A stretch of 64,000 bases of DNA from an uncultured virus (IMG/VR IMGVR_UViG_3300009104_000011) (Duplodnaviria > Heunggongvirae > Uroviricota > Caudoviricetes): the IMG/VR virus record IMGVR_UViG_3300009104_000011. One strand, 5' to 3'. Below the pieces are notes generated by a model. That model made no database searches, had not been told where the DNA came from, and saw nothing but the letters and a program-made list of their open reading frames with translations. Shown here piece by piece: positions 3,017 through 27,108 of the stretch; position 1 is the stretch's first letter; every line of letters begins with the position of its first letter. Both the position numbers and the translations under genes were made by a program.

Positions 3017-5689
3017 GATAGACATTATGGAATAAGAAGTACTAGTGATATTTGATACCGAGGTATATAACCAATGACGTTATGTTACCATCTAGTGTCG
3101 AATAGTCCACTTTCTAATTGAATAAATTCAAAAGAAAGTGTAAACACAGTAAACACACGAGATGAGAATTAGAAATGCACGGTTACCCTTACAGGGCAAC
3201 CTAAAACACAATTCACATCTAGTAAACACGCTCGTCAATCCTATGGATTGATCGACAACTCTAACACCAGATGGTAACATCGATAAAATATACTAATTTC
3301 CCTAGGCGCCCAGCCTAAGGGAGACTATGGCAACGGTAACCAAAGTGCTGACCAATTTAGCATACTGGATACCCATGGCCAGTGTTAAATTACGATGTTC
3401 TTTTTTGGTTCTATAAGGAGAGGTCCCAAGTAATACACGAGGGGCTCTTCGCGAACCAATAAAATCTGGTTAACAAAAATTTAGAATAAAACCCTGTGTC
3501 CAACAAGACCTGGGGTTGGAATGCATTAAATCGATAAAATAATACTAATCATTTGAATGAGTTCGTGGTGTTGTCCGACTACGTGTCCGACAACTAATCA
3601 CTTCTCAATATAAGCAAAATGAATTATCTTACCCTGGTAACATCAGGGAAGGTAGAAAACATTTGAAAGAACAAATAAGTTAGTTAAAACTGGGACGGAA
3701 CTCAGAAATTACGCTAAATAACACCATATTTATGATGAATATGTTTTGACAAGGCTGTGTGACAACAGTGCTCTAGACACATTAGAAATAAATAAACAAG
3801 GTCCAGTTGGTAAGTTCTCCCTTACCTCTTTTGAGGTAAGAGGAATAACAATCTCTACACAGTGGTGTGGAAGAATACTGGATACCGGTGATGGAAAGAA
3901 ATTGAAGTGGAAAATCTAGAGATGGTGGGTTACCGCCCACAACTCTCGGACGAACCCACATTCTTTACCACGGATAAACGTGGAAAAACCTGAACTGCAG
4001 ACGGTATACCCGGAAACATATGGTTTCTGAGATTATATAAACAAAACAAGAAAACAGTATGGTCAGCCCCTGGTAAAGGGTTAGATTATTCTGATAATGT
4101 AAATAATCTAAAACATAAGATTGCGGTCCTGAGGTGAGGAATTCGTAACCTATGCGGACCCTAATTAGCCACAAATACATTTGCAAAAAGACTTGGAAGA
4201 CACATCCCAAGTGACCCAGAGCATCTGGGAAAGTTGCAACAACTAACGAAATAAAATTTTACGTAACGTGCACGTAACGTGGAGCGGAAGATAAACTAAC
4301 ATCTAATGCCAGGTAAAAGACTTTGAACTTTAACTTGGAGGCGATGTCAGGAACGTCGACCTCCTCACACTGAGTGCGCAAAGATTTGCAAAAGAACATA
4401 CTAAGTTCTTATCTAAATTATACTTTAAAGAGAAAACAAAGAATTCTCTTACCGACGCGCGTCGTAGGTAAGAGCACCAAAAAACAAGAATACTTTGTAA
4501 AAGCATGTTGCTACATTATACACAGCAACAAATAAACCGTTTACCAACCTAGTAAAACTCCTCTAACGAGTTGAGACTAAGGAAACTTACACACTAATAG
4601 TAGAATTACCACACGTGACGAACGGTGGCTAACATTACTAGAGTGGACACACACACACTAAACAAAAACCTACAACTAACAAGGCTACAATATTAAGCCA
4701 AAGTAACCTGTCCAATATTAATGGAAAAAGAGTTACTAGTGTAGTTACTATGCGAGATAAAAAGACAACACAAAGGCAAATCGAACACAAACTCATAAAA
4801 AAGAGTGGACTGCGAGGCTGCCTAGACTTTTTGAACCAGGGTTACATTGCAAACGAAAACATTTAGTTTTTCGCCAGCAGTTACAAACTAATGGAGAACC
4901 AAAAGCACTCCAGAAGTGAAGAAGAGAAAAAGCAATGACAATGACGTCGACGAGAAGTCGAACAAAAAAGAGATACACTCTCAAAGATTTGCTAAGCACG
5001 CGGCACGGCCGCGGATACCATTGCTCTTCCCACTAAAACAAAACAAGAAAGTTTGACAGCAGGACGAAGTCGTCCTCCTCCTGGATACATACTATGTTTT
5101 CCGGGGACCCCTGAAATAGACTTTAGAAAAAACAACTAAAGAAAACAATCTTGCATGCCAGAAGAAGAGTGACTTACACGTCACAAAATTTCTGACATCA
5201 TATCAAAATTAATTGATTACATCATCTAATAGATGATTTACATCATACACATTGACATTGACAACTACAAAAAATGAAGACGGCTACCAAATAGAAAATG
5301 GTAGTCATGAAGACTTTCATTAAAGAAACTACAGTTATAGAAGAATGAATACATTGCCTGGTTAATTAAAGAAGAAAAAAGTAAAAAACACAGGTAGTAT
5401 GACAGCAGATTCGAGCCAATAAGGCTAGAACCATGAGAAGACCACCCATTTGGTGGTCTAATCTATATTTACCAAAAATAAAAAAATATGGAAGTGTAAG
5501 AGACATTGCACCTCCTTACGGGTAATGTAGAACTCGTGTAAACAAATTAGTGCGATACAAGACAGTAATCACTGATTAAATCACTGGCGATAGCAGAACG
5601 AACTACCCCTTAGATCTCTCTAATCGAGAGGTTTAGTAGGGAAGACTCGCGCGCTATCTTTAACCCCACTTCCCATAATGCTGTCACCA
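3017..5689 (+). ncRNA. Very large (~2.67 kb) structured RNA, K-turn family
   Basis: No + strand ORF of 60 aa or more; 5' GATAG-A-CATTATGG pairs with 3' CCATAATG-CTGTC followed by ACCA|G; K-turn at 3058-3079; dozens of hairpins joined by A-rich linkers. Confidence 0.7.
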
Positions 5690-5702
5690 GAGAGAGAAAA
5701 TT

Positions 5703-7430
5703 ATGAAAAATAATAACGAACTTGAAAAAGAATTAAGCATGATGAGTAGAGCAAGTCTACCGTGTCTGGCGGTTTCATCGCCAGAGACTAAGGAGATTGT
5801 AAAGGACATTGTCCAATACGCAGCAACAACTGGAAGCCATGGAGAAACCAATAAAGTACCTCGTGTACTAGTTTGGAGAGTCTCTAGTGGCTTTGAGGAG
5901 TACGCTGCGCACGTGGATGATGAAGACGGAGAAGAACACGTGATAGTCGATGGAATTAGTGAAATCGACTTGACGATGGCTGACATTAGACCCGTAATTG
6001 GGTCTGACGGAAGACCAGTAACTTACGCCGCAGCAGACGAATTCCCTGGAGCAAACGTACCGTTTGCTGTAGATTATATGACCAATTACGATACAAAAGA
6101 AGAAGGCAGAAATGTCATCTTCGTTTTGAGAGATTGGCAACGCTTTATTGATGCCAATGCAGAGCATGTCGATAGGCAACTCGCATTGTTTGAAAACATA
6201 CTTTTAGGGGGAAAGAAGATTATCGTCTTACTTTGCCCTTCAAGGTGGAATGGGGATAATATCCCCGTAGAACTTAACAGCCACATTAGGCTGATTAGGT
6301 ACGATCTACCTGACAAAGAAGACCGAATGGCCTTAATTGAACTGGAGAGACTTAACTTGACCATGGCGAGTGCTATGGGCAAGGACTTCGTTCAGGCTTT
6401 CAAGAACATCACTGAACCTGACATAGAATCCTACGCAGATGCATGCGCTGGGATGACTAGACAGCAAATTCAGGATACCCTAGTAATGTGCGCTGCAACG
6501 CACTTTAATTGGGACATAGATTTCATTCTCGATGAAAAGAGAAAGGCAGTTGAGCAAGCGGGTTTCACCCTGATTCGCCCATCTGCTGGTTTTGAGGTAA
6601 TTGGTGGACTCACGCCCCTAAAGCGCTGGGTCAAACTAATTTCTCGACGGTTCACAAATGCTGCGAAAGATTACGGTTTTATCCGTTTTATTCGTGGACT
6701 TCTAATGGCCGGTGTTCCCGGCTGTGGAAAGACGGCTGTCGCTAAGGCGATGGCTAACGAGATGAACATGAACATACTGATGGTTGAAGCACAGAACCTC
6801 AAAGGCTCACTTGTTGGTGAGTCTGAGGCAAAGGTGCACAGACTATTGGAGATTGCTAAGGCAGCGGCTCCGCTTATCGTCTTCGTTGATGAGGCAGAAA
6901 AGTTGCTTGGTAAGTCAGAGGGACTCCACGATGGAGGCGCTCATGACGCTGTCCTAGGACAGTTTCTAACATTCATGCAGGAAGATGACTCAGGAGTGTT
7001 CTTCGTCTTTACGGCGAATAACATGAATAAGTTCTCGCCGGAACTCGTGGACCGATTTGAAGGTCGATTCTTTATCGACCTGCCCGAACCCGAGGAGCGT
7101 GAGGAGATCATTAAGATTCACCTGCGACTTCGTAATCAAGATGTCAATCGATTTGACATCAACGAACTAGTCAAGAGGACTGCAAAGTTCTCTGGACGAA
7201 ACATCGAGGATGGTATCGAAGAAGCAATGACCGTGTCCTTTAGCGAGGACCGGCCACTTGAAATGCAAGATCTTGTCGAAGTCTTCAAGGTACTGGTTCC
7301 GACCAGTAAAACCAAGAAGGATGAGATTGAACACATGAGATCGTTCGTAGAGAACGGAACCATGCGGAAGGCTAATAACGTGGTTGTGAGGGATAAAACC
7401 CAAAAGCAATCCCGTGTACGGAACTTTTGA
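5703..7430 (+). CDS. Ycf46/SpoVK-like AAA+ ATPase
   Basis: Walker A GVPGCGKT, Walker B IVFVDEAEK, LVGESE pore loop, FTANN sensor, degenerate N-terminal AAA domain. Confidence 0.9.
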   Translation: MKNNNELEKELSMMSRASLPCLAVSSPETKEIVKDIVQYAATTGSHGETNKVPRVLVWRVSSGFEEYAAHVDDEDGEEHVIVDGISEIDLTMADIRPVIGSDGRPVTYAAADEFPGANVPFAVDYMTNYDTKEEGRNVIFVLRDWQRFIDANAEHVDRQLALFENILLGGKKIIVLLCPSRWNGDNIPVELNSHIRLIRYDLPDKEDRMALIELERLNLTMASAMGKDFVQAFKNITEPDIESYADACAGMTRQQIQDTLVMCAATHFNWDIDFILDEKRKAVEQAGFTLIRPSAGFEVIGGLTPLKRWVKLISRRFTNAAKDYGFIRFIRGLLMAGVPGCGKTAVAKAMANEMNMNILMVEAQNLKGSLVGESEAKVHRLLEIAKAAAPLIVFVDEAEKLLGKSEGLHDGGAHDAVLGQFLTFMQEDDSGVFFVFTANNMNKFSPELVDRFEGRFFIDLPEPEEREEIIKIHLRLRNQDVNRFDINELVKRTAKFSGRNIEDGIEEAMTVSFSEDRPLEMQDLVEVFKVLVPTSKTKKDEIEHMRSFVENGTMRKANNVVVRDKTQKQSRVRNF

Positions 7431-7467
7431 AAATTGACCTATAAACGGTCATATTAGAGGAGAAATT

Positions 7468-8115
7468 ATGGCAAAAGAATTTGTAAGAGAAGGACTAAAA
7501 TTTAATGGCAAGAACGATTGGTTTTACTTAACCGATTACTTTGCTGTCCTACATTATTACAGAAGTTTGAGAGAAGAGGAAGAAGACACTGCTTTTCCTC
7601 CTCTAATCCCAAAAAATGATTTCTCAGAAATACCCCAAGACGTCGCAGAAGAAGTTGATTACATAATTGACCATTTGTTAAAGGAGATTGAAACCCTAGG
7701 CTCTAATGCCGGGGATCCAATGACTCAGATAGCACATGGTGAGGTTAATATGATGGGCTTCATGATGCACGATCCGCTATTGAAAAAGGCGATTGGTAAT
7801 GTGGCAATTGAGATATTTATGAGAGATGCAAAAATTACTGAGGATGAAGCATATGAAAAAGCAAAAGCAGAACTGCCAGAATTTATGGCAGATTTTGAAG
7901 ACTTCCTAATGGAAGTTGCTAGTTACTCAATGAGAGAAATCTCAATGAAGGCGGCTAACCACGGTATCAGGATAACTGATGTCAGAGAACTGCTGCAACC
8001 TAAAGTGGCTAGAATAGGCTGGAAGGGTATTAAATTACACTTTGAACAGCCCAGCAAGTCTAGTAAATCTACAGATAAACCTGGTAGAGATACTAGAGAT
8101 ACTATGTTTGGATAA
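7468..8115 (+). CDS. Hypothetical protein
   Basis: 215 aa ORF, GAGGAG leader after junction. Confidence 0.8.
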   Translation: MAKEFVREGLKFNGKNDWFYLTDYFAVLHYYRSLREEEEDTAFPPLIPKNDFSEIPQDVAEEVDYIIDHLLKEIETLGSNAGDPMTQIAHGEVNMMGFMMHDPLLKKAIGNVAIEIFMRDAKITEDEAYEKAKAELPEFMADFEDFLMEVASYSMREISMKAANHGIRITDVRELLQPKVARIGWKGIKLHFEQPSKSSKSTDKPGRDTRDTMFG

Positions 8116-8141
8116 TACTACTCAGTATATTAGAGAGAACA

Positions 8142-8948
8142 ATGGATAAGAAATTAAATATTGAACTAACAAAAGAGGACCTTGAAACTCTTGCTATGAT
8201 GATTCAAGACGGAAAAGTCACCTTGGAGATGTCGCTTTCAGCGAAAGCGATAGAACCAAAGGAAGACCCCGCTCTAATCAAGAGGCAAGAAGAGGAAGAG
8301 GCTCAAAAGTTAAGAGAGAAAGAAGTAGCAGCATATCTATTGCTGCCGGAGAATAAGTTTTGGATAAACTGTTCTTGGAACGAGTGCATGACGCACATGA
8401 CAGGAACCCGAAAAAGGGAAGACGACATTATACTTAGAAAGGGAAAGACTACGGTCGCCTTTGATGAGTTGAACGGCAAAAGCAAGACTAGCCATAAGGC
8501 CGGAAAGCCTTTGGGTAAGAGACAGATGAAACTGGTGAAAGCCTTTAGATCGGAATACGGAGTCTCTGAGAAAGAGATGAAGCAGACCAAGTACATCTAT
8601 GAGAAGGCTGACTTTGACAGTCAAGTCTTTACTCACTTGAAAGAAGCCGTGAATGAAGCAAAGACAAACGGACACAATTCGCTTGTCTATGATAAACTCA
8701 GCGATGCTGAGACAACTTCTGAAAAAATCGGTTCAAAATGGATTAATGCCATAGTAAATAAAATCGTGGATACTCAGGGCAAGCCCCTAGAATTCGATGA
8801 TGAACTACTATACAAAGAGGCAGACATAGTCGTACGTGACTATGTTGCCAAACAACGAGCCGGTCCAAATAAGGACTACTTTATCTCAATTGGTGAAGGA
8901 GTCATATACATCCTAAGTGATGCATATGACGAAATCATCGAAGGCTGA
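8142..8948 (+). CDS. Hypothetical protein
   Basis: 268 aa ORF after junction motif. Confidence 0.8.
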   Translation: MDKKLNIELTKEDLETLAMMIQDGKVTLEMSLSAKAIEPKEDPALIKRQEEEEAQKLREKEVAAYLLLPENKFWINCSWNECMTHMTGTRKREDDIILRKGKTTVAFDELNGKSKTSHKAGKPLGKRQMKLVKAFRSEYGVSEKEMKQTKYIYEKADFDSQVFTHLKEAVNEAKTNGHNSLVYDKLSDAETTSEKIGSKWINAIVNKIVDTQGKPLEFDDELLYKEADIVVRDYVAKQRAGPNKDYFISIGEGVIYILSDAYDEIIEG

Positions 8949-8978
8949 GTGCTTATTGCGCTCTATTAGGAGAGAAAT

Positions 8979-9893: not shown

Positions 9894-9901
9894 TGCTATT
9901 A

Positions 9902-10051
9902 GGGAGAGAGGAGTACTGTACCAAGTTTGTTGGTTTCTTGTTATATTGTCTCTTTGTTCGGCCTAACACGCCGATTTTCATCACAGAGGATCGCTTAAGT
10001 GCTAACGTATACTTGCACAGATAGCCGTCCTCCGGTACTCCCTCCCCACTA
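9902..10051 (+). ncRNA. Structured RNA unit (~150 nt)
   Basis: Terminal stem gggag..ggagtac/gtactcc.ctccc followed by ACTA|G. Confidence 0.65.
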
Positions 10052-10086
10052 GATGAGGAGAGAAGAGACAATAAAAACCAATACTA

Positions 10087-10443
10087 GGGAGAGTTAAACT
10101 GAGACGCAAGTCTATGAAATGACGGCCATCCACTTCGATTACAGTAAGTAACGATTCCGGCTCATACTTGAGCCCGAACGACGCTTGGGTCATCCGACCA
10201 CTGCGCTTTACCGCGCTGACAAGCAGCACGCCAGTAATCGCACGCCCTGGGTTCCCCAGCGCTAACACCGGAGAGCCGTCTCAGACCCATACATCGGGAC
10301 CTTGATCCTTATCATCGGTCCCTTGTCCACGCACACGGCAACAGATTAGGCTCGGCGCCTAATCGAACCTCAATACACCGTGTACTGGCGGTGGCTCGCA
10401 TTCGCGATCCACATGGGCCTGAGAAACTTAGAAACTCCCACTA
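10087..10443 (+). ncRNA. K-turn family RNA
   Basis: GGGAG/CTCCC terminal stem + ACTA; CTGA-GAC-GCAA-GTC-TAT-GA at 10099-10117; many GC-rich hairpins. Confidence 0.7.
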
Positions 10444-10903
10444 GGAAGAGAAAAACTGAGACGAAAGTCTATGACGAACCTCGGCATACATTCACGTAAT
10501 TTCCTCGGTCTATGCAGAAGTTATGGTAGCATTGATATCGTACAGCAATATCCAGGGACCCCCTTGGATATTCGTAGAAGTGCAAATCAATACTCCACAA
10601 CCATCTGTATAGCACAAGGAAGTTACTACAATGTTGCCTCGGCTCTACTCTGTGTTTTTACAATAGGTCAATAGAATCGACCACTCTAGTAACGAATAGG
10701 GCAGACTCCTTAAGGTCTGCAAAAGAGGGCTACGCCCCGACTCACTAGCGCATACGCGCAAGACAACCAAGGTTGTTTGGGGAGTCTACCCGTCTTCGAT
10801 TACTAGAGTCGGTCATTCTATGGCACCTAATGTACCACCTAGACAAACGGTGGATAACACAGCCGCGGAAACCCGCGAATCGTAGAGAACTAGTCTTCCA
10901 CTA
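10444..10903 (+). ncRNA. K-turn family RNA
   Basis: GGAAGA/TCTTCC + ACTA; CTGA-GAC-GAAA-GTC-TAT-GACG at 10456-10476; rod gaccactctagtaacgaa/ttcgattactagagtcggtc. Confidence 0.7.
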
Positions 10904-10911
10904 GATTACTA

Positions 10912-11474
10912 GGAAGAGAAAATAAAACTGAGATAACACAATGACGTTATGTCACCAAGCATCCTCGACGCAAGAAAGCCCGCGCTAGGCATACGCCCTA
11001 CGCGCTATAGGTTATTTGTGTCAACTGAGGATTATGGTGACATTATTTGATGATTACAACTGGCTACAATAATACCGCGATTGGTAAAATTTTGCGGGCT
11101 CTGAGGGCACCTTTCTAGCATGAAATTGCAAGGAAGGGATACGCGATTAGAACTTATGTAGACTGTAACACCATCAAAATCGGTTAAAGTGTCCGAACGA
11201 ACTATTGTAAATTTAATTCACAAGAAATAGATAACGACTAAGAAGACTCACACTACGTGTGATTTTCTTGTCACGAAATACATTTCGATGTTAAATTTGC
11301 AACACTTAGATTCGGACATATTCCACCGATTACGATGGTGTTACAGTAAACATAACTTTAATCACTACCATAGGAGATTACGTATTCACGAAATAACCTA
11401 TTAAAGTGAAGCAGTAGGCGTACCCACTCGGGCGGCGCCTCGCCTTGTAATTTCATGCTAAATTTCTTCCACTA
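10912..11474 (+). ncRNA. K-turn family RNA
   Basis: GGAAGA/TCTTCC + ACTA; CTGA...AATGACG at 10928-10946; long rods (ctgtaacaccatc/gatggtgttacag; tagcatgaaattgcaagg/ccttgtaatttcatgcta). Confidence 0.72.
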
Positions 11475-11818
11475 GGATGGGTTGGGAAACCGAAAACTAA
11501 ATGCGAATTTAATACCGAGATCGAAAGATCAATGACGTTCCGGTGACGTCCATCATACGGATCAGATAGATCCTCCTGATGGCTCATTGGGGAGTACTCC
11601 CCTGAGCATACATGAAGATACGAAATTCGAGCCGCCTTTGGCTAATCGAACGCAAATTGCTATTTCGTACTTCATAGACGCTCAACATTCGTCACCGGTG
11701 ACATTCTGGAACGATGCACATTCGCGCATCTACGAATCATAGATTCGATACCCTCACAACAGACTTTCTGTTGAGAGCGTCCCAGTATGTCACACCCACA
11801 TAGTTTTCCCATCCACTA
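11475..11818 (+). ncRNA. K-turn family RNA
   Basis: GGATGGG/CCCATCC + ACTA; CCGA-GATC-GAAA-GATC-AAT-GACG at 11515-11537; stem ccggtgacg/cgtcaccgg. Confidence 0.72.
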
Positions 11819-12371
11819 GAGAAGTTTTAACACTGAGGTCGAAAGACCAATGACGTTGCGTTGACAAAGATGCGCGCGTTTTCACCATAGAATATCTTCA
11901 CGCCTATAAGAGTGTGAAGCAAGTACCTTACGGTACGATAGACCTGATTACAGTCTAATAATCTATGGTAAAATCGTGCTCCTTCGTCAACGCATTGCAT
12001 GAATGAAGGTTCTAATTCATCATAATGAATAGCCTATTATCAATCTGAAAAACCTCGATTTTGAGGCCTAAACGAAGATTACATTCTGCAACGCGGCATG
12101 ATGACAGATGAGGCAAGCCATTCAGGTCTAAGGACCTTCTGACACGCCTAGGATTTCATAATTTCTATACAGAGCAATCATTCTCACTTAGAGGTGTAAG
12201 CGCATACGCGCAAAGAGAGTCACGTAAACGTTTGACTCTAGCCTTAAGAATGAAAACTCGTATAGCAAACAACGAATTCCTTCAAGACAAAACATAGAAC
12301 TTACACCTCCACGCAAGTGGATTTAAGGTGACGTTCACGTGTCATCATGCCGCAGATGTTACTTCTCAACA
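11819..12371 (+). ncRNA. K-turn family RNA
   Basis: GAGAAGT/ACTTCTC + AACA|GATG; CTGA-GGTC-GAAA-GACC-AAT-GACG at 11833-11855; stems gcgttgac/gtcaacgc, gcggcatgatgaca/tgtcatcatgccgc. Confidence 0.72.
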
Positions 12372-12372
12372 G

Positions 12373-12657
12373 ATGAGTGACAATACATCGATATTTGTAA
12401 GATACAACAAATTAAAAATGGGTTTTGAAGTCGTTCACGCATCATGGGATGCGCAAAACGATAACGAAATTTGGGAAGAAGCAGAAACATTCCAACAGGA
12501 ATGTGCTGCTTTGAAATATGCGGTACAGAAGCACCTGAGTCTTAGGACTAGTGGTGTCTCACCAGAATATGGTATAACACCGCTGTATAATCCTAAAAAC
12601 CTACTACCAAGAGAGCAAAAGACTCTCAATGATTGGTATGAGGAGAAGATACTATGA
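12373..12657 (+). CDS. Hypothetical protein (start revised to MSDNTS)
   Basis: In-frame ATG directly after AACA|G junction. Confidence 0.7.
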   Translation: MSDNTSIFVRYNKLKMGFEVVHASWDAQNDNEIWEEAETFQQECAALKYAVQKHLSLRTSGVSPEYGITPLYNPKNLLPREQKTLNDWYEEKIL

Positions 12658-12848
12658 GTACACAAGAAATTGAACTCGGCCCAAATGAACAAAGAAGAAA
12701 CCGCTTCCAAGATAATTTGTTGGAAGATAGGCACGAAGAAATCGTTGCCTTACTTAAAGAGATTAGAGACGCAATTAACGTCTTCAAAGAATTTATTCTT
12801 GAGGTTACACCTCAGGATGCTAAAGACGACATTGAAGACCTACGTTGA
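12654..12848 (+). CDS. Small acidic hypothetical protein
   Basis: ATGA overlap with upstream gene, GAGGAG SD. Confidence 0.65.
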   Translation: MSTQEIELGPNEQRRNRFQDNLLEDRHEEIVALLKEIRDAINVFKEFILEVTPQDAKDDIEDLR

Positions 12849-12865
12849 AAATAATCTCCTATTAG

Positions 12866-14413
12866 ATGAGAACAATAAATATAATTAACCATAGAAAAGA
12901 AGACACCTTAGCAGCCCGCCCTATTACTCTTGTAAGAGAAGGAAGCGGGGAAAAGGAAATTTATGGAAAAGTTATGGCTATGTTTTTGAAACAAGGTATC
13001 ATGATTGAACGCATGTATTTGCAAGTTAAAGGCAAAGACTTAGCGATTTCAATACTTGGACTAAATGGTAATGTCCTATACTTAGAACTGCACAATTTTA
13101 TTGATGACACCACAGAGTTGCCCTACAAAGGAGATTTTCTTCTTGAGGGGAAATCTGATGGTCCAGCGATTCAGCACATAACTAAAACAGTTGATGCGCT
13201 AAATACTGGAAACAATCAAACTGTGCTAACTTTAGTTAGCCCGCGTGTCCGCGGTGGAAGATATGGAAACATGACTCTAAACGGACAAGGTGTATCAAAC
13301 TACGCTACTGGAGACCTCTTTGTAAACGCAGGGATATCTAGTCTGACAATTCCAATTATTTGGAGTCCTAACAAAGGTAGTTTGATGAACATAAAGGGCT
13401 TAGTAACACATACCGGGAGCAATCAGTCAAATAGTAGCCACAGACGAACATCTGGTGCGCTAACTCAATATTTGAGAAGACTGAAAACCCCAGCAGAAAT
13501 ACCAATAATGTTTCACATAGAACAGTCTGGAAATAACTACGGAACTGGAACAGTTCCCGCAGTTAATCTGATCTGTACACATAACAAGAGTATTGTTAAA
13601 ACGAGTTTACCAAGTAACCTAGATATAGGTAACTTGGCCTTTCTATATCAACTACCAAGAGGAACTATTGGTTCTATAATTGGTAAGGGAAATAAAAAGA
13701 GGCCATTCGGTGAACTTCTTGTTTGCTATGATACTATCCGCTCTGTCGGAGGCGACAAATTAAATGTCGTTTGTAGAACAGTAAACACATCTGTTTCGGA
13801 CGGAACAAAAGAAGATACAACAGTAGAAACCAAGAACCTTGATGACCAAGGTGAGTTGATCTACGAGAATACTAATTTACAAGGTGTATCTTCAATAAGT
13901 TACTCTACTTGGTTTGACATGGTTCAGACCGCAAGAAGTGGCACGCTATCTTTCTCGACATTTACAAATGTCATGGAAGGTGATGTGACGGAGTTATTTG
14001 GCGTTACCAATAATGGAGATATAGTCTATGGTTTGAAAAACAATCAAATGACTGTAATTACAACTATTTCGACATTGGGAAGAGCAATGCAGTTTGAATC
14101 AAAACTGCTAGAGATTCTCCCAGATACCGTTAAAAGGCGAACCAAGAAGGTCGTTAAAACGTATGATGATAAGTTGGTCCAAGCATTGGAAGAAAGAGCA
14201 GAAAAGCCCAGATTACTAAAGCGGCTTAACACGCTCATCGCTAAATTAAATCAAAGTGACTATTACAAGAAATGGAAGGCAGTTTCTGACGCAGAATGCG
14301 AGAGACTAGACCAACCAAAGGAATACGAACTAGAACAAGTATTTCTAATCTACTTGAAAACCACAGAAACAGTAACAATGAAAGACATTGAAGAGTTCAA
14401 CAAACTTAAATGA
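12866..14413 (+). CDS. Hypothetical protein (515 aa)
   Basis: Long ORF starting at ATTA|GATG. Confidence 0.8.
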   Translation: MRTINIINHRKEDTLAARPITLVREGSGEKEIYGKVMAMFLKQGIMIERMYLQVKGKDLAISILGLNGNVLYLELHNFIDDTTELPYKGDFLLEGKSDGPAIQHITKTVDALNTGNNQTVLTLVSPRVRGGRYGNMTLNGQGVSNYATGDLFVNAGISSLTIPIIWSPNKGSLMNIKGLVTHTGSNQSNSSHRRTSGALTQYLRRLKTPAEIPIMFHIEQSGNNYGTGTVPAVNLICTHNKSIVKTSLPSNLDIGNLAFLYQLPRGTIGSIIGKGNKKRPFGELLVCYDTIRSVGGDKLNVVCRTVNTSVSDGTKEDTTVETKNLDDQGELIYENTNLQGVSSISYSTWFDMVQTARSGTLSFSTFTNVMEGDVTELFGVTNNGDIVYGLKNNQMTVITTISTLGRAMQFESKLLEILPDTVKRRTKKVVKTYDDKLVQALEERAEKPRLLKRLNTLIAKLNQSDYYKKWKAVSDAECERLDQPKEYELEQVFLIYLKTTETVTMKDIEEFNKLK

Positions 14414-19856: not shown

Positions 19857-19863
19857 ACTATTA

Positions 19864-19971: not shown

Positions 19972-19972
19972 G

Positions 19973-20176: not shown

Positions 20177-20186
20177 TCCTCATTAG

Positions 20187-20285
20187 ATGAGTAATGAACT
20201 TGTTTTTATCGGAGTTATAATCGGACTGGCCTTCCTATGGTCACTAGACCGATATAGAAACTCTCTAAATGATGAAGAGGAATGA
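20187..20285 (+). CDS. Micro membrane protein (32 aa, MSNELVFIGVIIGLAFLW...)
   Basis: ATG at junction, one hydrophobic helix, stop inside next hairpin. Confidence 0.6.
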   Translation: MSNELVFIGVIIGLAFLWSLDRYRNSLNDEEE

Positions 20286-20302
20286 GACACTTCCTCAATT
20301 AG

Positions 20303-20389: not shown

Positions 20390-20398
20390 CTTAATTAG

Positions 20399-20584: not shown

Positions 20585-20612
20585 GTCTGACTATGTTAGA
20601 CCAACCTATTAG

Positions 20613-20741
20613 ATGACTATTACTACAACCCCAAGTTGGTGCCTATGCTGGCGCACACCTTGGGAATATGAGCATATGGCAGACGATCGTGGTAAATGCA
20701 AACATTGCGGAAAAAAGATCCAGCATTACTTTGCATCATGA
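20613..20741 (+). CDS. Micro Zn-binding protein (42 aa)
   Basis: ATG at junction; CLC and CKHCG. Confidence 0.55.
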   Translation: MTITTTPSWCLCWRTPWEYEHMADDRGKCKHCGKKIQHYFAS

Positions 20742-20750
20742 TCTCATTAG

Positions 20751-21347
20751 ATGGAAGGGATACCTAACATAAAAATTGTGAAAGTAACATCGTGGATAGC
20801 AATCCCTGCTGATATGCAGGGAGAGGATGTCATAGGAACAGAATGGGCGAACGTCCTTCATGTTACCAGCGAAGACATACTAAGCCCCACGGTAGTTACA
20901 GAAACAGCCCACTTAGACGAACCGGTCTTGGTGGAAGAAACAACAATGACTGAGAAACCGAAAAAGCGCGGACGCCCTAAGGGCAGCAAGAACCGCAAAT
21001 CCAAGACGGCAAAGAGAACCAAGAAAGCGATGAAAGACCTCAAGCAGAACAAGAGAGTCTTTACCGGCGCACTCTATGGTTGGAATGCTACAAAAGATGG
21101 TTCGCTCGTTCCTAACTGGAAAGAGCAGAACAACATCGATTGGATGAAAAAAATGATTGGCCTAGGCCATTCTGCTTCGTGGATAGCCAGAATATTGGCT
21201 AATATGAAAGTCACTGGAAAGAGAGGAGGAAAGTGGAATTCTTCTAGCGTTTTGAGAACGACTAGAAATAAATTTCACTCTACTCGTAATGAAGATGAAG
21301 CACCTAAGTGGTTCAAGAATCAGAAAACTCTCAAGTTGAAAGTATAG
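20751..21347 (+). CDS. Protein with AT-hook and recombinase-type DNA-binding domain, no catalytic domain seen
   Basis: KKRGRPKG; LYGW...IARIL....GKRGGKWNSSSV resembles the DNA-binding domain of large serine recombinases. Confidence 0.65.
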   Translation: MEGIPNIKIVKVTSWIAIPADMQGEDVIGTEWANVLHVTSEDILSPTVVTETAHLDEPVLVEETTMTEKPKKRGRPKGSKNRKSKTAKRTKKAMKDLKQNKRVFTGALYGWNATKDGSLVPNWKEQNNIDWMKKMIGLGHSASWIARILANMKVTGKRGGKWNSSSVLRTTRNKFHSTRNEDEAPKWFKNQKTLKLKV

Positions 21348-21366
21348 GCGAATACCGCCTTATTAG

Positions 21367-21705
21367 ATGAGCGAATATAGATATTTTGTTTATGCGGAAA
21401 AGAACCTTCGTGGTTTGAATTCCAATGAAATTAATGATTATATTTTGGGTGCTTGGGAAACCCGTATGCCAGACTATGCTATGGAGTATTGGTCTGGTCA
21501 CGGACAAGCATTTGGTTTTCGCAAATTAACTTGGAAGAATATCTTCAAGGGTAGAAGACATCGAAGTTACATCAAGTCATATGATGTTTCATTTGATGTT
21601 TCTACTTTAGAAGAAGGAAAAAATCTTCTTGCTAGTTTGCAACACCTAACCAAAGACGACGGCGTAACAGTACGCTTAGGAGTCTACCCCACAGAGGAAC
21701 ATTGA
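21367..21705 (+). CDS. Hypothetical protein
   Basis: ORF at ATTA|GATG. Confidence 0.7.
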   Translation: MSEYRYFVYAEKNLRGLNSNEINDYILGAWETRMPDYAMEYWSGHGQAFGFRKLTWKNIFKGRRHRSYIKSYDVSFDVSTLEEGKNLLASLQHLTKDDGVTVRLGVYPTEEH

Positions 21706-21717
21706 TTCCTCAATTAG

Positions 21718-22836
21718 ATGAGTGATAAAATATACACAACACCCACAGTTTACAAGAAAACTAGTACGGGCAAAATCCAGCAATGGACTGCCTGGGTCGA
21801 GAAAACCAAGACGGGCTTTCTATTGAAAGTCCAATCTGGTCAGACCGATGGTAAGTTGAAAGAAACGTCAGGACAAGTTATTGACGAAGGAAAGCAAAAA
21901 CGTTCAGCACAAGAGCAGGCCATATTCGTGGCTAAATCTAAGTTGAAGAAAAAGCGGGATGAAGCCTATTTCGATACAATCGAAGAGGCGCAGACCAAAA
22001 TCAAGTTGCTACCAATGCTAGCGCACCCAATTACAAAGCGCGGCCATAACATAACTTACCCTGCAATCGTTCAACGAAAATTTGACGGAGTACGGTGCCT
22101 CGCCCGAATCGAAGATAACGGCAAGGTAACTTTACTGTCAAGAAAAGGCAAAGAGTTCCCTCACCTTAAGCACATTAGACGCGAAGTTATCAACTTCAAT
22201 AAAAACCCGTCCATAGTGCTAGATGGTGAACTATACTCTGACACCTTAACATTCCAAGAATTAGTTGGACTTGTAAGAAGAGTGACACTCAAACCGGGAA
22301 ACGACACGCAGATGCTTGAAGTTTCCCTTAGAGTGTATGATTGTATTGACCTCGATAACGAGCCAGATTTCAAAGACCGATACGTAACTATCACCGATAT
22401 AACAAACGGTGCTAAGTATCTGAGTCTAGTTGAAAACGTAACCGTAACTTCTGAAAAAGAAGTTCACGCAGCGCAGGCTCGATTCGTGGCAGAAGGCTAT
22501 GAAGGTGCTATGGTTAGAAATCTAACCGGAGCATACGCCATTGGAAAAAGAAGTGCTAACCTCCAGAAAGTGAAGACTTTCTTAGACGGCGAATATGAAA
22601 TCGTCGGGTTTACGCAAGGAACAGGCGACGAGACCGGTTGCGTCATTTGGATCTGTAAGACCAAAGACGGACAGGAATTCAGAGTCAGACCTCGTGGAAC
22701 CAGAGAGGAAAGGCAAGAATATTTCAAGAACGGAAAAGACTACATCGGCAAGATGCTCACGGTAAGATACCAAGAGTTGACCGATGATGGTATTCCAAGA
22801 TTCCCAGTGGGAATCGCCATTCGTGACTACGAATGA
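21718..22836 (+). CDS. lig: ATP-dependent DNA ligase
   Basis: Motif I QRKFDGVR, LDGELY, EGYEGAMVR, LQKVK, C-terminal OB with PRFP. Confidence 0.92.
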   Translation: MSDKIYTTPTVYKKTSTGKIQQWTAWVEKTKTGFLLKVQSGQTDGKLKETSGQVIDEGKQKRSAQEQAIFVAKSKLKKKRDEAYFDTIEEAQTKIKLLPMLAHPITKRGHNITYPAIVQRKFDGVRCLARIEDNGKVTLLSRKGKEFPHLKHIRREVINFNKNPSIVLDGELYSDTLTFQELVGLVRRVTLKPGNDTQMLEVSLRVYDCIDLDNEPDFKDRYVTITDITNGAKYLSLVENVTVTSEKEVHAAQARFVAEGYEGAMVRNLTGAYAIGKRSANLQKVKTFLDGEYEIVGFTQGTGDETGCVIWICKTKDGQEFRVRPRGTREERQEYFKNGKDYIGKMLTVRYQELTDDGIPRFPVGIAIRDYE

Positions 22837-22852
22837 GGTTAATCGCCTATTA

Positions 22853-22933
22853 GGAGAGTTGTGCAATCAAGGAAAACGTACAAGTTGCACGAAAAAACTG
22901 ATATTACAAAAACATATATCAGTCTCTCTAACA
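22853..22933 (+). ncRNA. Small structured RNA unit (81 nt)
   Basis: GGAGAG/CTCTCT + AACA|GATG; internal stems gtgcaa/ttgcac, actgatat/atatcagt. Confidence 0.6.
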
Positions 22934-22934
22934 G

Positions 22935-24167
22935 ATGGACAATAAAAATGAAAATCATGGATACGCAGTTGATGGTAAATTGAAGAAATCGACTAAGGGC
23001 TACATAGTTCTTAGTTCGATAAAAGCAGGACGAATAAGTTATACACAAATAGTTAGGGTCGCTAGAGCAAACAAACTCAAGCAATCCCAGATACCTCACC
23101 TTAGATCAGCGAAGAACGCTTTTGCTAAGGCTAAGGACTCTTTGAAAGGCGTGTCACTTCCTACCCTCTTAGAATTAGAGGGCTGGGACGGACAAGTCAA
23201 ACAAAGTATTAACGTGACTCCGTTAAAGAGAGCAAATGAATACCAAGTCTCCATTGTGAGAGAAGGTAGGATGAGAGGAAAGCGCCACAAGGCAAGTGTT
23301 CCAGCATTTAGGCTGGAATTTAACCCGCCCGAAGGTGTAGACCATCGCGCATGGATCAGAGATTACATGCGTGCTTTCTGGGACGAGAAGTACAAGAAAT
23401 TGATACTGGAAGGAAAAGAAACAGTTCCCGAGTTATCAGAAATAACTAGATGCATTACAGTCGCCGGATATTGGGAAGGCGAATCTGTCGATGCTGCACT
23501 TATAGAAAATCTGAGGACAAGAATAATCCGAGCATTCCAGACCAGCGTGGTCGGAGTGGATGGAGAAATGCTTCGTCAGACGATGGAAGATGTTCTACTA
23601 AGACAACTCAACGGTGTAAAATTTCTGGCAGGAAGAGGGGCAGTTTATGTCCCACAGAAAACGAAAGATGGTAAGGATACGTCCGAAACCCTCGACCGTT
23701 TAGAGCGGCTTATTGCTGCCTTCTCTGCTGGAGTAAATGTAGTTAGTGACGAAACTAACTACTACAACGAAGAAGATGAACCCGTAAACCGTTACGGGCG
23801 AAAGACCGAATTCCGCTATCTAGGTTATCTAGATGGCGCAAGGGAATTAGAATATATCCGTCAGGATATAGGAAATACCCTTTCAGCGGAAGTGTCAGAA
23901 TACTGGGCCGAATTGGTCGAGGTTGCTGCCACTTTCAACGACGACAAGGTCGAAGACTTTGAGAAAAAGTTAAATCGATTCAAAGCCCGAAAGGCTAAGA
24001 TCGAGAAGAGGATCCAAGTTATTGGTGCTTCTGTTGGTGGAGAAATCCCCATTAGGAGGCAACTATACAGTGATTTGAATACTAAACTAAACAGCAGAAT
24101 TGCTGCAATCCCTCCAAAGAGGAATGCAGTAAGAGTTGCTCTCAAGGATCTTATCGAATTCAATTGA
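22935..24167 (+). CDS. Hypothetical protein, possibly DUF6744-like
   Basis: 410 aa; GRGAVYVP motif and C-terminal coiled coil recall proteins linked to DUF1257/DUF2997 modules (weak). Confidence 0.6.
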   Translation: MDNKNENHGYAVDGKLKKSTKGYIVLSSIKAGRISYTQIVRVARANKLKQSQIPHLRSAKNAFAKAKDSLKGVSLPTLLELEGWDGQVKQSINVTPLKRANEYQVSIVREGRMRGKRHKASVPAFRLEFNPPEGVDHRAWIRDYMRAFWDEKYKKLILEGKETVPELSEITRCITVAGYWEGESVDAALIENLRTRIIRAFQTSVVGVDGEMLRQTMEDVLLRQLNGVKFLAGRGAVYVPQKTKDGKDTSETLDRLERLIAAFSAGVNVVSDETNYYNEEDEPVNRYGRKTEFRYLGYLDGARELEYIRQDIGNTLSAEVSEYWAELVEVAATFNDDKVEDFEKKLNRFKARKAKIEKRIQVIGASVGGEIPIRRQLYSDLNTKLNSRIAAIPPKRNAVRVALKDLIEFN

Positions 24168-24185
24168 GGCTAATGCCTCATATTA

Positions 24186-24577
24186 GATACGAACTTATTC
24201 ACTACCGATTAGCCCTACCACGTGATAGGCTCTGATCCGATGTGATGTATCGCATAGGCCTCTGCATTTGGCAGCAAATTGCGCAGAACCCACCCTATGC
24301 AGCAAAACCGGATTCTTAACTAATATTCAAAAAAAAATTGAATATAGCCAGAATCAAAAACCACCCGGTAGTGTGGTATTAAAATAAAAATGAGCAGGTA
24401 AAATCACGCTAAAAAAGAGCGGAGGACCTGTTGTCTCTTGATTGTAAATATGACAGAGATGGAATACTGACTGTGCTTAGTCTAACGACGTATTCCCGCG
24501 GCCTTTCATGGCCTTCAAAATAAATTAATTTATCTTGATGGAAAAAAACATAATTCGTTGCATAAAAAGCAACATTA
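24186..24577 (+). ncRNA. Non-coding unit between two junction motifs
   Basis: No ORF; hairpins (agcccta/taggct, tatattcaa/ttgaatata, ctgttgtc/gacag); ends gttgc-ataaaaa-gcaac-ATTA|G. Confidence 0.45.
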
Positions 24578-25338
24578 GAGAGTATACAATCTGAGGTCGA
24601 AAGACCAATGACGTAAGCCGAAAATTAAGCAAACTTGTTTGCAACGATTGAGACTATGCTGCGCAAAGACGCTGCGCTTCTCAATTTGCTGCACTCGTTC
24701 ACTTAACGGCTCATCCTACGGACAAGCACTTCAGAGTCACAACTCTGAAGCATTACCCTAACATCCCTACCACCTTGCGGCTCCGCTGCGGTGCTAACGG
24801 GAGGTAACGGGCACGCAAAGAGTAGATTGCGCAGCGCGCGATCTACTCGGTGCTAATCCTACGGAACAACATCTCAAAAACGAGAACGATTAAGTTTCGC
24901 CTTTGCTGGTTAACGCTGCGCGTGTGACCTGCGGTCACAAACCAACTGCGACGAAATGCACTGCGTTACTTAATCAACGGATCGAAGATCCTCGTTCTAC
25001 GTTTTGTTGCATGTTTGAGCCTATTTATCGCCTACACAACCAGACCTACGGTCATAGACTTGGCAGCCCAAGCGCTGCAGACTCATGGTTGTGAAAGGCT
25101 TCGGCTCCTCGGAACACTGCGGCTTTTAAGTCGCAAACTGATGACCTTGCGCCAACGGACTGCGCTATTTCATACTAAAATGAAATTTGCTACGCAATCG
25201 CTAGTCCTGCGAGTCAATCAACCACGAACGCCTCTACGAGGCTTGCTCATTTCACGAGCACATTATTGATTGGCCCTCGCGGCTTGGCTCAACCGGTTCA
25301 TCGCCAAGTTCCTCGGAAACTTAATCTTACTCTCACTA
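24578..25338 (+). ncRNA. K-turn family RNA (~760 nt)
   Basis: GAGAGTA/TACTCTC + ACTA; CTGA-GGTC-GAAA-GACC-AAT-GACG at 24591-24613 (identical to 11833 copy); many hairpins (cttcagagt/actctgaag, gagtagat/atctactc). Confidence 0.72.
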
Positions 25339-25345
25339 GATTGAT

Positions 25346-25765
25346 ATGAATGCATACAATAACCAAGAAGAAGGGTTACCAGAGGATTCGTTGAAAGCGG
25401 CTGATGTAATTGATCAGCCTGAACACGAAACTGTAGTCTCTGGCCCACCAATAAAGAAAATTGTGTCCAATGAGCAATTCATTAGGGCATGGAATGGAGC
25501 AGAGTATCTATCAGAAGCAGCAGAAGCAATGGGCATACAGCCCGAATCTGCAAGAGCACGAGCAGCAAAGTTGAGAAAGACTTTTGCTAAGGCTGGAGTG
25601 AACCTTACACTAAAGGTTCACAAGAGAAAGCCAAGATCAGACCGAGCAGGTCTAGCAGATAACTCTGCTGAACTTGCCCGTCTTGCTCAGATTGCATCTG
25701 ACACATACGAAGCAGACCAGACAAATGAGTCTGAGAACATAGAGCCAGTCGAATCACAAGAGTGA
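25346..25765 (+). CDS. Putative HTH DNA-binding protein
   Basis: LSEAAEAMGIQPESARARAAKLRK HTH-like segment. Confidence 0.6.
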   Translation: MNAYNNQEEGLPEDSLKAADVIDQPEHETVVSGPPIKKIVSNEQFIRAWNGAEYLSEAAEAMGIQPESARARAAKLRKTFAKAGVNLTLKVHKRKPRSDRAGLADNSAELARLAQIASDTYEADQTNESENIEPVESQE

Positions 25766-25783
25766 TTTGTCTGTCTCTTATTA

Positions 25784-26439
25784 GAGAGTTCTTACACTGA
25801 GGCCACAAGCCTATGACGTTTAAGTAACCACGTCTAAAGAACCGCATTAGGTTCTGAGACGCTACGCTATCCGACCTACATAAACAACCGTTCTAAAGTC
25901 CATCGCGGAAATCCGCGAAAGGTATTGGCAAATGAATTACCAATACAGTTGCATTCGCAACGCCGGAGAACGACTTTTGTGGGCAATTGCCCAGTCGTCC
26001 TTGTCCGGTCGAGTGATGGAAAAGAACGATGTTCAGGTAGATAGTACTGCGCATAAAGCGCAAGCAGACGAACATTGGTCAATAAATTGACCGCCGTTCG
26101 GAAACGGCTCTGCAGAGCATTAGATTTGCAACAGCATTACGACAATGGTAGTGCCACGAGGAACAATAGGAGCAGAAAGAATTTGACAATCAAAGATTGA
26201 GCGTGATTCCACGCTTGTCTAAATCAACCGGCCTACGGCCACAGGTTGATTCTTAACGACTCAAATTAATACTGGTCCATAATGTTCCACAGGCACCCTC
26301 CTCTGTCGTAACACTTGTAACGCACGTTAGATAAAGCAGCATTAGACTGCATTATAGTGAAGCGAATCAGATGATTCCAATAGGATGGGACCAAGTTCCC
26401 ATCTTAGCAGAGAAACTTAAAAACTAGATCTCTCAACTA
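25784..26439 (+). ncRNA. K-turn family RNA (~656 nt)
   Basis: GAGAG/CTCTC + (A)ACTA; CTGA-GGC-cacaa-GCC-TAT-GACG at 25797-25818; hairpins ggtcaat/attgacc, gccgtt/aacggc. Confidence 0.68.
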
Positions 26440-26440
26440 G

Positions 26441-26584
26441 ATGGAAGTAAGCAGCATAATTATGACTGTATTTACATACACCCTTGTCGGTCTTGGTTTT
26501 GCGTGTGGATTTGAAATATTTCGCCGCATAAAAGCAAGAATGAACAAAGGAAAGAACTCACAGCGAAACCAAAGATGGCTGTGA
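26441..26584 (+). CDS. Micro membrane protein (47 aa, MEVSSIIMTVF...)
   Basis: ATG at ACTA|G; hydrophobic N-terminus, basic tail; stop within next hairpin. Confidence 0.55.
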   Translation: MEVSSIIMTVFTYTLVGLGFACGFEIFRRIKARMNKGKNSQRNQRWL

Positions 26585-26592
26585 GTCTATTA

Positions 26593-26721
26593 GATAGGAC
26601 CAAGACTATTGACCGCTAGCGTTGTGTTAGTTTTATTTCTTGGTATGATCAAGGACTAATACAACCGTGTAGGTCGGTATTGGGGGGAAACCTATCTGAC
26701 AGTCGGGAAAGACCGGCACTA
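26593..26721 (+). ncRNA. Small non-coding unit ending in CCG-GAAAGA-CGG type hairpin
   Basis: Bounded by junctions; gtcgggaaagaccggc + ACTA|G. Confidence 0.45.
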
Positions 26722-27108
26722 GGAGAGATAATTAAACCGAGGTGAAAGCCTATGACGTACTCTTGCTAAAGTACACAGACATTCACAGACGAACATAAAG
26801 TGAAACGCAGATGTGGTGCATGCGCACCTTATCGCGAGATTAGCGATTATAACCTTCTGTGCAAATCTGGGTATTTATCAAGAGGTATCCGATCGCATGC
26901 GAGTGTGACGGTATCACTTCAAAACAAAAAGAACGCATATGCGTTTGCTTCTAATTCTTATGGGAGTTTTACACACAAGCGAAGGGCAACTAATAGGCTA
27001 TGCATTTAGTAAAGCCGTAGCCCACTCGCTGGTGTAAAGCCCCATATCATATTAGTTTAACAGTGCAGTAAACTGCATTTGTTTTGAAAATTAGTTTACT
27101 CTCCACTA
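26722..27108 (+). ncRNA. K-turn family RNA (~387 nt)
   Basis: GGAGAG/CTCTCC + ACTA|GATG; CCGA-GGT-GAAA-GCC-TAT-GACG at 26737-26757; stem gcgagtg/cactcgc. Confidence 0.72.

Follow-up and report, generated by a model that had tools for sequence, protein, structure and literature searches.

Nine putative large non-coding RNA units with a shared kink-turn module in a presumed archaeal mobile element

The DNA examined here, a 64,000-nucleotide (nt) stretch from an uncultured virus (IMG/VR record IMGVR_UViG_3300009104_000011; hereafter the window), carries nine copies of a short module with the sequence features of a kink-turn (k-turn). Each copy lies near the start of a non-coding stretch, and these stretches have recognisable boundaries, structured bodies, conserved counterparts in related DNA and a covarying helix in the module, and are absent from known RNA families. 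We lean, if only slightly, towards the view that the nine sites mark separate, gene-sized non-coding RNA (ncRNA) units of 0.34–2.65 kb, in which the k-turn would be bound by the protein L7Ae and which would act in trans as stable ribonucleoproteins (RNPs).

An earlier account of the window, made from its letters and predicted open reading frames (ORFs) alone (the sequence-only reading), had claimed nine k-turn sites, each 12–41 nt inside its unit, with covarying stems and loops that are mostly GNRA. All nine are indeed present, at 3058, 10099, 10456, 10928, 11515, 11833, 24591, 25797 and 26737 on the + strand, within stretches free of any ORF of at least 80 amino acids (aa) (~2776–5702, 9894–12327, 24168–25345 and 25766–27109). 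The module consists of CYGA, a capped helix of 3–5 bp, a 3-nt bulge NAU ((A/U/G)AU) and then GA-CG, which supplies the G.A/A.G pairs, a C.Y pair and a G-C pair. The stems listed by the sequence-only reading recur as it gave them (GGT/ACC, GAC/GTC, GATC/GATC, GGTC/GACC, GGC/GCC), with the addition of GGT/GCC, which contains a U.G pair, at 26737; the loop is a GNRA at six of the nine sites. Every unit opens at the gene-start signal A(C/T)TAG, upstream of the module, and the distance from A[CT]TAG to CYGA is 11–15 nt in eight units and 39 nt in the 11515 unit, in agreement with the spacing claimed earlier. Two sites depart from the common form. Site 10928 has no real stem (GATAACAC) and the appearance of a kink-loop (k-loop), while site 10099 is a variant whose orthologues read ...UAUGAAAU(A/U)ACGG, so that 3b,4b are A,A; AAU follows the GA in 4/4 orthologues of this type, and a second GACG near 10099 in the window is a coincidence.

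We compared a stricter pattern, C[CT]GA-N7-17-N-ATGACG, with 300 dinucleotide shuffles, both strands taken together. The window has ten matches on the + strand, namely the nine sites and one match inside an ORF at 47860, and none on the − strand; a flush stem of at least 3 bp is found in seven of the ten. The shuffles gave a mean of 2.1 pattern matches (maximum 8), and of 0.087 (maximum 1) once the stem was demanded. A candidate tenth module at 20249 (CCGA...AAUGAUGA, directly after CACTAG) was rejected: its GA is lost in the related locus L006 and its stem is poor. The units, numbered U1 to U9, and their modules are listed below, where R1 is the covariance model described further on.

3043–5690, + strand: U1, ~2.65 kb; signal TACTAG at 3043–3048; long A-rich, hairpin-rich body
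3058–3079, + strand: k-turn hairpin of U1, CCGA-GGU-AUAUA-ACC-AAU-GACG; R1 E 2e-4
10082–10439, + strand: U2; signal TACTAG at 10082–10087; ends pair as GGGAG/CUCCC
10099–10124, + strand: variant k-turn of U2, CUGA-GAC-GCAA-GUC-UAU-GA-AAU...
10439–10899, + strand: U3; signal CACTAG at 10439–10444; two long rods; terminal helix GGAAGA/UCUUCC
10456–10476, + strand: k-turn of U3, GAC-GAAA-GUC
10907–11470, + strand: U4; signal TACTAG at 10907–10912; ~200-nt hairpin at 11154–11355; 8-bp terminal helix
10928–10946, + strand: k-loop-like module of U4, CUGA-GAUAACAC-AAU-GACG, no real C stem; R1 E 2e-4
11470–11814, + strand: U5; signal CACTAG at 11470–11475; terminal helix GGAUGGG/CCCAUCC
11515–11537, + strand: k-turn of U5, GAUC-GAAA-GAUC; 39 nt from the signal
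11814–12346, + strand: U6; signal CACTAG at 11814–11819; followed by ORFs 12373–12657 and 12654–12848 without a full signal
11833–11855, + strand: k-turn of U6, GGUC-GAAA-GACC; best R1 match, 54 bits
24573–25334, + strand: U7; signal CATTAG at 24573–24578; terminal helix GAGAGU/ACUCUC, then ACTAG and ORF 25346
24591–24613, + strand: k-turn of U7, GGUC-GAAA-GACC
25779–26434, + strand: U8; signal TATTAG at 25779–25784; end ...CUCUC-A-ACUAG
25797–25818, + strand: k-turn of U8, GGC-CACAA-GCC; R1 E 0.047
26717–27104, + strand: U9; signal CACTAG at 26717–26722; terminal helix GGAGAG/CUCUCC, then ACTAG-ATG of the primase-like ORF 27110
26737–26757, + strand: k-turn of U9, GGU-GAAA-GCC with a U.G pair; R1 E 0.011

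The features of the module support its reading as a simple standard k-turn, in the order of box D'/C', under the definition of Huang and Lilley (2016; PMC5061560). The features named there are found in it, namely the G.A/A.G pairs with the bulge, a canonical (C) helix and a non-canonical (NC) helix past the G.A pairs; the exception is the C helix of the U4 type, where the stem is 0–2 bp and the module k-loop-like in 5/5 orthologues. In the seed alignment of the model, NAU followed by the GA that lies opposite the GA of CYGA is invariant, and pairing past 4b-4n is inconsistent. Both the G.A and the A.G column are constant in 42/43 distinct rows; 3b.3n is C.U or C.C, and 4b-4n is G-C in 42/43 rows. 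The k-turn claimed by the sequence-only reading, a 3-nt bulge plus tandem G.A pairs, is thus supported at the level of both sequence and covariation. Box C has the consensus RUGAUGA and box D the consensus CUGA. Read against these, the module offers CUGA as its D box (CCGA in some units) and AUGACGU as a C-like box that agrees at 6/7 positions of RUGAUGA. In archaeal small RNAs (sRNAs) the internal D'/C' motif likewise has a D-type box followed by a C-type box, and the U4 type would be its k-loop form. A title in the reference list of PMC5061560 describes k-loops as L7Ae sites to which bacterial homologues of L7Ae do not bind.

The 515-aa ORF on the 3' side of the second RNA cluster has 17 homologues, and their alignment retrieved 17 marine metagenome loci in which this flanking protein is 29–78% identical (31–78% by alignment). 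Gene order around the RNA clusters is kept in these relatives, and the module recurs at syntenic positions; six unit types persist as distinct orthologues where the neighbouring protein is only 31–37% identical. Stems among the relatives include GAC/GUC, GAUC/GAUC, GGUC/GACC, AGCC/GGCU, GGCC/GGCC, GGCA/UGCC, UGCCC/GGGCA and UGUC/GACA, and caps include GAAA, GCAA, GAGA, UUCG, GUUAA, UAAC and AAAUA. For example, the U7 orthologues in L006, L007 and L018 read UGCCC-UUCG-GGGCA (or UGUCC) in place of GGUC-GAAA-GACC. Since caps swap between GAAA and UUCG in orthologues, the helix appears to serve as an inert cap and not for docking. The contigs of the relatives reach 139–180 kb. Searches of IMG/VR by protein, alignment or DNA pattern returned no relatives, nor did the searches run against GTDB species genomes or phage records.

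A covariance model, suggested as a check by the sequence-only reading, was built from 15 gap-free module copies and run (R1) over 239,332 bases on both strands at E<=1. It returned 66 matches, 66/66 on the + strand, eight of them in the window; site 10099 was missed at this threshold. Of the 66, three are variant sites and two, at L004:1848 and L005:2970 (E 0.015), were set aside as likely false, since they lie inside a 94-aa ORF and lack CUGA/GA. Pairs were counted in 44 distinct rows of an alignment fitted to the model, which favours structure; the raw stem list gives the same picture. The C helix (four pairs) is 99.3% paired, and changes on both sides, that is compensatory changes, occur in 4/4 pairs. 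Such changes fill 44 cells, against 12.7 +/- 3.0 in shuffles (0/500 reach 44), and the covariation score is 0.32 for the structure and at most 0.09 for slid controls.

The outer limits of the units are also marked by pairing. In six of the nine (U2, U3, U4, U5, U7 and U9) the stretch starting at the G of TAG forms a flush helix of 5–8 bp with the bases that immediately precede the next signal, where the boundary is expected. Relatives keep these terminal helices by compensatory variants (GAAAGAAA/UUUCUUUC, GAAUG/CAUUC and GAAAGUAA/UUACUUUC), and RNAalifold recovers the terminal helix of U5 too. The flush pairing of the ends therefore gives the units the form of 5'-G...C-3' domains, each with a terminal helix as its closure and AYUA as the link between them. 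Seven of the nine precede another unit or an ORF with its own signal. The signal itself is shared with genes: [ACT]A[CT]TAGATG has 51 sites in the window, 45 of them on the + strand; the signal lies 0–16 nt upstream of 30/51 + strand ORFs of at least 100 aa; and a perfect hairpin of at least 5 bp ends 0–2 nt before it at 28/46 sites, compared with 13% of random positions. The gene for the lysine transfer RNA, tRNA-Lys (38161), is preceded by TATTAGATGA and followed by CATTAGATG. Upstream of the signal there is no other informative position and no conserved TATA-like element, and in distant relatives the signal reads TACTAG. It could be an unusual initiator yielding leaderless messenger RNAs (mRNAs), or an RNA cleavage site. 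A recurrent pattern around it is a small hairpin, (T/C)A(T/C)TAG and then ATG or a short GGAG-type leader (e.g. 12860–12868, 21361–21369, 28272–28280 and 38151–38160).

Whole units fold far more stably than their shuffles, with z of −6.4 for U5, −11.5 for U3 and −7.1 for U6; coding controls gave −3.7 and −3.2 in the first 30 kb and −0.36 in the late region (59000–59400). RNAalifold shows compensatory change at 23/65 pairs in U5 (7 sequences) and 10/109 pairs in U3 (4 sequences). Some arms of U3 are identical across relatives, and others cannot be aligned yet fold to rods of like length. The end pairing, the folding z and the covariation together support treating the units as separate non-coding genes that are both structured and conserved. 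Coding by another reading was rejected, all three stop codons being plentiful in the units; ORFs from the AUG of the module have a median of 11 codons and lengths that are not conserved. A blastn-short comparison of 12 units with the window found no antisense to window genes of at least ~15 nt, and its matches were module-to-module, one 15-nt hairpin common to U3 and U6, and two arms of one rod. The units had also been called a paralogous family: this holds only for the module and at most ~30 nt around it. The shared hairpin is AGCGCAUACGCGCAA (stem GCGC, loop AUAC; U3 10747–10761, U6 12199–12213), and its loop varies among U3 orthologues (AUAC, AUCC, AUUC).

U1, the longest unit, has orthologues in L002, L008, L009 and L015. 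It can be aligned to L002 at 2824–3288 (89%), 5537–5702 (94%) and two short blocks. Its interior (3289–5536) is hardly alignable to L002, which is the closest relative and has neighbouring proteins ~78–82% identical; a length of 1.9–2.65 kb and the non-coding state are retained in all relatives. No repeat families of note occur inside U1.

Transcription of the units is likely, though weakly indicated. Parts of U1, the whole of U6 and coding genes are represented among contigs of four RNA-library runs, which belong to two studies and at most three samples; one 522-nt contig spans 11819–12346, the predicted U6. Such contigs cannot show ends, strand or level.

At gathering thresholds, the only Rfam match in the whole window is tRNA-Lys, in line with the sequence-only reading, which would have been contradicted by a strong match of the units to a known family. 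At E<=5, the region 2500–27200 gives six weak, unrelated matches. Among the weak matches, those to C/D families (E 2.3 and 4.7, far below gathering) lie at 5166–5227 (− strand) and 7129–7200, none of them at the modules, and the rod of U4 resembles, weakly, a microRNA precursor. Covariance models of GOLLD, ROOL, OLE, RNase P and SRP had no match in the window. A self-cleaving ribozyme at the unit junctions was considered and rejected: no Rfam ribozyme appears at E<=5, and CUGA-helix-NAUGA with a 3-nt bulge is not a hammerhead, the core of which is CUGANGA...GAAA with three helices. To our knowledge, no large structured ncRNA family is known from archaeal viruses or plasmids, and full-text literature searches returned none. 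The passages of the magrovirus literature that were consulted make no mention of non-coding RNA, promoters or motifs. No described family fits the units, and we rate them as an RNA family that is new although its motif is known.

The closest known counterpart of the module is the archaeal box C'/D' k-turn or k-loop, an L7Ae site. It has the same order (D-type CUGA, a short capped helix or loop, C-type (A/U)AUGA), the tandem G.A/A.G pairs, a 3-nt bulge ending in U, a pyrimidine.pyrimidine 3b.3n and a G-C 4b-4n, and its k-loop form corresponds to U4. Box C/D sRNAs are ~50–70 nt long. Our units differ from them in having C.U or C.C rather than U.U at 3b.3n, in lacking a terminal C/D motif, a free guide, the small size and a match to a curated C/D model, in carrying a single module per RNA of 340–2650 nt (R1 found no second copy within any unit), and in standing in arrays on a mobile element. 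In the polycistronic small nucleolar RNA (snoRNA) clusters of plants and yeast, tandem units are separated by short spacers, a terminal helix lies beside the k-turn, and the 15.5K/Snu13 RNP defines and protects the ends. The likeness to our units in array, spacers and terminal helix is evident, but our units are far larger, are not guides, and have a fixed 4-nt AYUA spacer that also stands before mRNAs and a tRNA. EBER1, which binds ribosomal protein L22, is an abundant, structured viral RNA with a site for a host ribosomal or RNP protein, as the putative handle of our units would be; it belongs to a eukaryotic virus and involves another protein and motif. GOLLD, ROOL and OLE are partly phage-carried. 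As described in PMC12286853, which treats virus-borne large structured RNAs of unknown function in bacteria, they are likewise large, highly structured and conserved, but they are bacterial single genes rather than arrays, and a shared 5' k-turn is no part of their definition. Finally, archaeal L7Ae represses translation through k-turns in 5' leaders, and in these operators too a k-turn stem-loop lies tens of nt from the 5' end (PMC5539422 and PMC6298567). These operators overlie a ribosome binding site and are designed to stay unfolded in the absence of L7Ae, whereas no conserved ORF follows the module in our units and 3b = C predicts autonomous folding, so that the units do not look like such operators.

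Whether L7Ae could be at hand depends on the host. Pfam identifies in the window an MCM helicase (42073–44496, − strand), a TFIIB/TFB protein (45157–46104), a second, weak TFB/ORC6-like cyclin-fold ORF (47657–48589) and two archaeo-eukaryotic primases (AEP; ORFs 40585–41670, − strand, and 27110–28267), together with an ATP-dependent ligase, RNase H, ribonucleotide reductase and a SAP-domain protein. The nearest named relatives of the TFB (~50% identity) come from metagenome-assembled genomes labelled Thermoplasmatota, Thermoplasmata or Euryarchaeota, and the runs containing window DNA are marine or seawater metagenomes. The majority of window ORFs have no match, and no close relative was found in phage records. 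We treat the window as part of a large, virus-like, archaeal-type mobile element of marine Thermoplasmatota; PDB sequence searches with two large ORFs and an Atlas look-up of a 139-aa ORF gave no handle on virus versus plasmid. L7Ae is described as universal in archaea (PMC5539422), and with an archaeal-type host, as the TFB, MCM, AEP primases and Thermoplasmatota relatives of the TFB indicate, it should therefore be available.

An L7Ae handle is plausibly the most likely use of the module. Under the interpretation that we slightly favour, a unit would begin at A(C/U)UA/G (the slash marks the boundary), continue with a purine-rich leader and present its k-turn hairpin 10–40 nt in; a flush-ended unit would form a closed multi-helix domain with long imperfect rods as arms. 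The k-turn, placed beside the closed 5'/3' end, would be bound by the host's universal L7Ae, and this RNP, aided by the terminal helix, would hold the fold in place and shield both ends, as in snoRNA and sRNA biogenesis. The units would then accumulate as stable trans-acting RNPs, either transcribed singly or cut from array transcripts at the 4-nt AYUA linkers.

Several observations weigh against this interpretation. Position 3b is invariably C, and by rule 3 of Huang and Lilley k-turns with 3b = C fold in Mg2+ without protein, while the box C/D and U4 k-turns of their paper need protein to fold (PMC5061560); a protein would therefore not be required for the fold of our module. Natural L7Ae operators are predicted to be unable to fold alone (PMC6298567). 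L7Ae folded all 16 3b,3n variants tested in PMC5061560, so that binding is likely in an archaeal cell even if the fold has no need of it. No L7Ae-family protein was found among the window ORFs, and any binder must thus come from the host. U1, U6 and U8 fail the strict flush-end rule, U8 pairing with an offset of one base, and U1 and U6 may be leaders rather than free RNAs because both run into ORFs without a signal of their own. The RNA-library contigs may derive from DNA; coding parts are covered too, and word depth over U2–U5 is not above that of neighbouring genes, although the gaps and low depth there carry no weight for or against transcription. Coding sequence in the first 30 kb is also somewhat over-folded (mostly −3 to −5 in a coarse scan with 12 shuffles per window), which may be pervasive structure in one part of the genome. 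Furthermore, the minus strand folds equally (z −8.2 and −10.2), with a consensus energy of −103.2 against −104.0 on the + strand, and the folding of the bodies accordingly does not tell the strand. GNRA and UNCG caps favour the + strand mildly (14/98 tetraloops, compared with 5/105 on −). It is from the strand-specificity of the module, together with the start signals and the direction of the genes, that we infer a + strand RNA, rather than a DNA element, as the product.

Among the alternatives, the one we take most seriously, though we think it rather unlikely, dispenses with protein altogether: the k-turn would be a self-folding elbow, as in riboswitches and ribosomal RNA, within large RNAs that might form multimers like GOLLD and ROOL. 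The invariant C at 3b with its predicted Mg2+-only fold, the very stable and covarying bodies, and the existence of virus-borne large structured RNAs in bacteria (PMC12286853) all speak for it. The GAAA/UUCG cap swaps and the varying stem lengths argue against docking, however. The U4 type, moreover, is a k-loop, and a k-loop is not expected to keep its kink without protein. In an archaeal cell, L7Ae, which binds every 3b,3n variant tested (PMC5061560), would bind anyway. It is less likely still that the units are cis-acting leaders or processing cassettes whose k-turn is an L7Ae switch, in U1 for the AAA+ ATPase and in U6 for the 94-aa and 64-aa ORFs. The AAA+ ATPase ORF at 5703 and the ORF at 12373 do follow U1 and U6 directly, without an A[CT]TAG of their own, and repression through 5'-leader k-turns has precedent in archaea (PMC5539422 and PMC6298567); but the position of the other seven units before a unit or an ORF with its own signal, the distance of 0.3–2.6 kb from k-turn to start codon, at which no ribosome site is occluded, and 3b = C, the opposite of operator design, are hard to reconcile with it.

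We consider it very improbable that the elements work as DNA, that is as single-stranded or cruciform hairpins serving as origin, priming or packaging signals with an incidental RNA fold. Folding and consensus energy are alike on both strands, and the window encodes an MCM and two AEP primases, as this would have it. Against it stand the strand-specificity of the module in all 66 R1 matches, the G.A/A.G pairs, 3-nt bulge and GNRA/UUCG caps, which are sensible in RNA only, and the start signal shared with genes and a tRNA, with which the terminal helices are flush. The least credible of the alternatives, in our view, makes the units giant box C/D-like guides, in which the D'/C'-type module would recruit Nop5-fibrillarin for the methylation of host or viral RNA. 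The CUGA form is an exact D box, and the C box keeps six of seven consensus positions including the G-C at 4b-4n; yet each unit has a single module and lacks a terminal C/D pair, the 11–15 nt on the 5' side of CUGA are taken up, in six of the nine units, by pairing with the 3' end of the same unit, the units are 5 to 40 times the size of an sRNA, and the weak Rfam C/D matches lie elsewhere. For these same features, and with no antisense to window genes of the length stated above, the guide role proposed by the sequence-only reading is disfavoured. Given that the relatives keep six unit types apart as orthologues, its proposal of L7Ae decoys appears less likely to us than RNPs specific to each type; our best guess is that the bodies are type-specific RNP scaffolds rather than generic L7Ae sponges.

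Besides the nine, there are at least three further non-coding units without a k-turn module, one of which contains a doubtful internal site:

2808–3042, + strand: non-coding unit without k-turn upstream of U1; signal TATTAG at 2808–2813; conserved with L002
9897–10046, + strand: stem-closed unit without k-turn; TATTAG at 9897–9902; ~13-bp terminal helix GGGAGAGAGGAGUAC...GUACUCCCUCCCC, read from the sequence
24181–24572, + strand: non-coding unit holding the doubtful site of the next line; R1 match in relatives only, E 0.77
24467–24490, + strand: doubtful k-turn-like internal site; flanking 6-bp helix GGAAUA/UAUUCC, L3 = C in the window, irregular C helix

Just upstream of U2, at 10047–10087 (and at L008:7229–7263), two signals ~35 nt apart surround a short purine-rich segment that can be read as a mini-ORF (ATGAGGAGAGAAGAGACAATAAAAACCAATACTAG). 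Small ORFs also lie among the later units. Between U7 and U8 is the 139-aa ORF (25346–25765), which is kept there in relatives (130–137 aa); its Atlas neighbours are hypothetical proteins of tailed viruses with helix-turn-helix-like folds, and serve as a lead only. Between U8 and U9 is a 47-aa ORF (26441–26584) with its own ACTAGATG start and a hydrophobic stretch that, read by eye, suggests one membrane segment. Elsewhere, a 39-aa zinc-ribbon ORF (33856–33972) resembles Nop10p below the Pfam threshold (E 0.0089; 16.5 bits, cut-off 27.2), a likeness that probably reflects no more than the ribbon fold.

A bolder extension, which we put forward tentatively and regard as doubtful, is that the element has an RNA 'punctuation' system, in which all products, whether mRNA, tRNA or ncRNA, are delimited by helix-AYUA/G. 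At least nine stem-closed cassettes would be freed from arrays and receive, close to the 5' end, a k-turn RNP cap containing L7Ae and perhaps Nop5, to give virus-specific large RNPs, possibly circular or multimeric, that act on the host. If true, archaeal mobile elements would thereby gain their first known large ncRNA regulon. The non-coding units occupy ~7.7 kb of the element's first 27 kb, a remarkably large outlay for so compact a mobile genome. Should the module prove to be an L7Ae handle, the element would be borrowing a core RNP-assembly protein of its host, and the units would offer long natural RNAs in which to examine the ways a k-turn RNP arranges and shields a large fold. The signal at the junctions may, in turn, reveal how transcripts start or are cut in uncultivated marine Thermoplasmatota.

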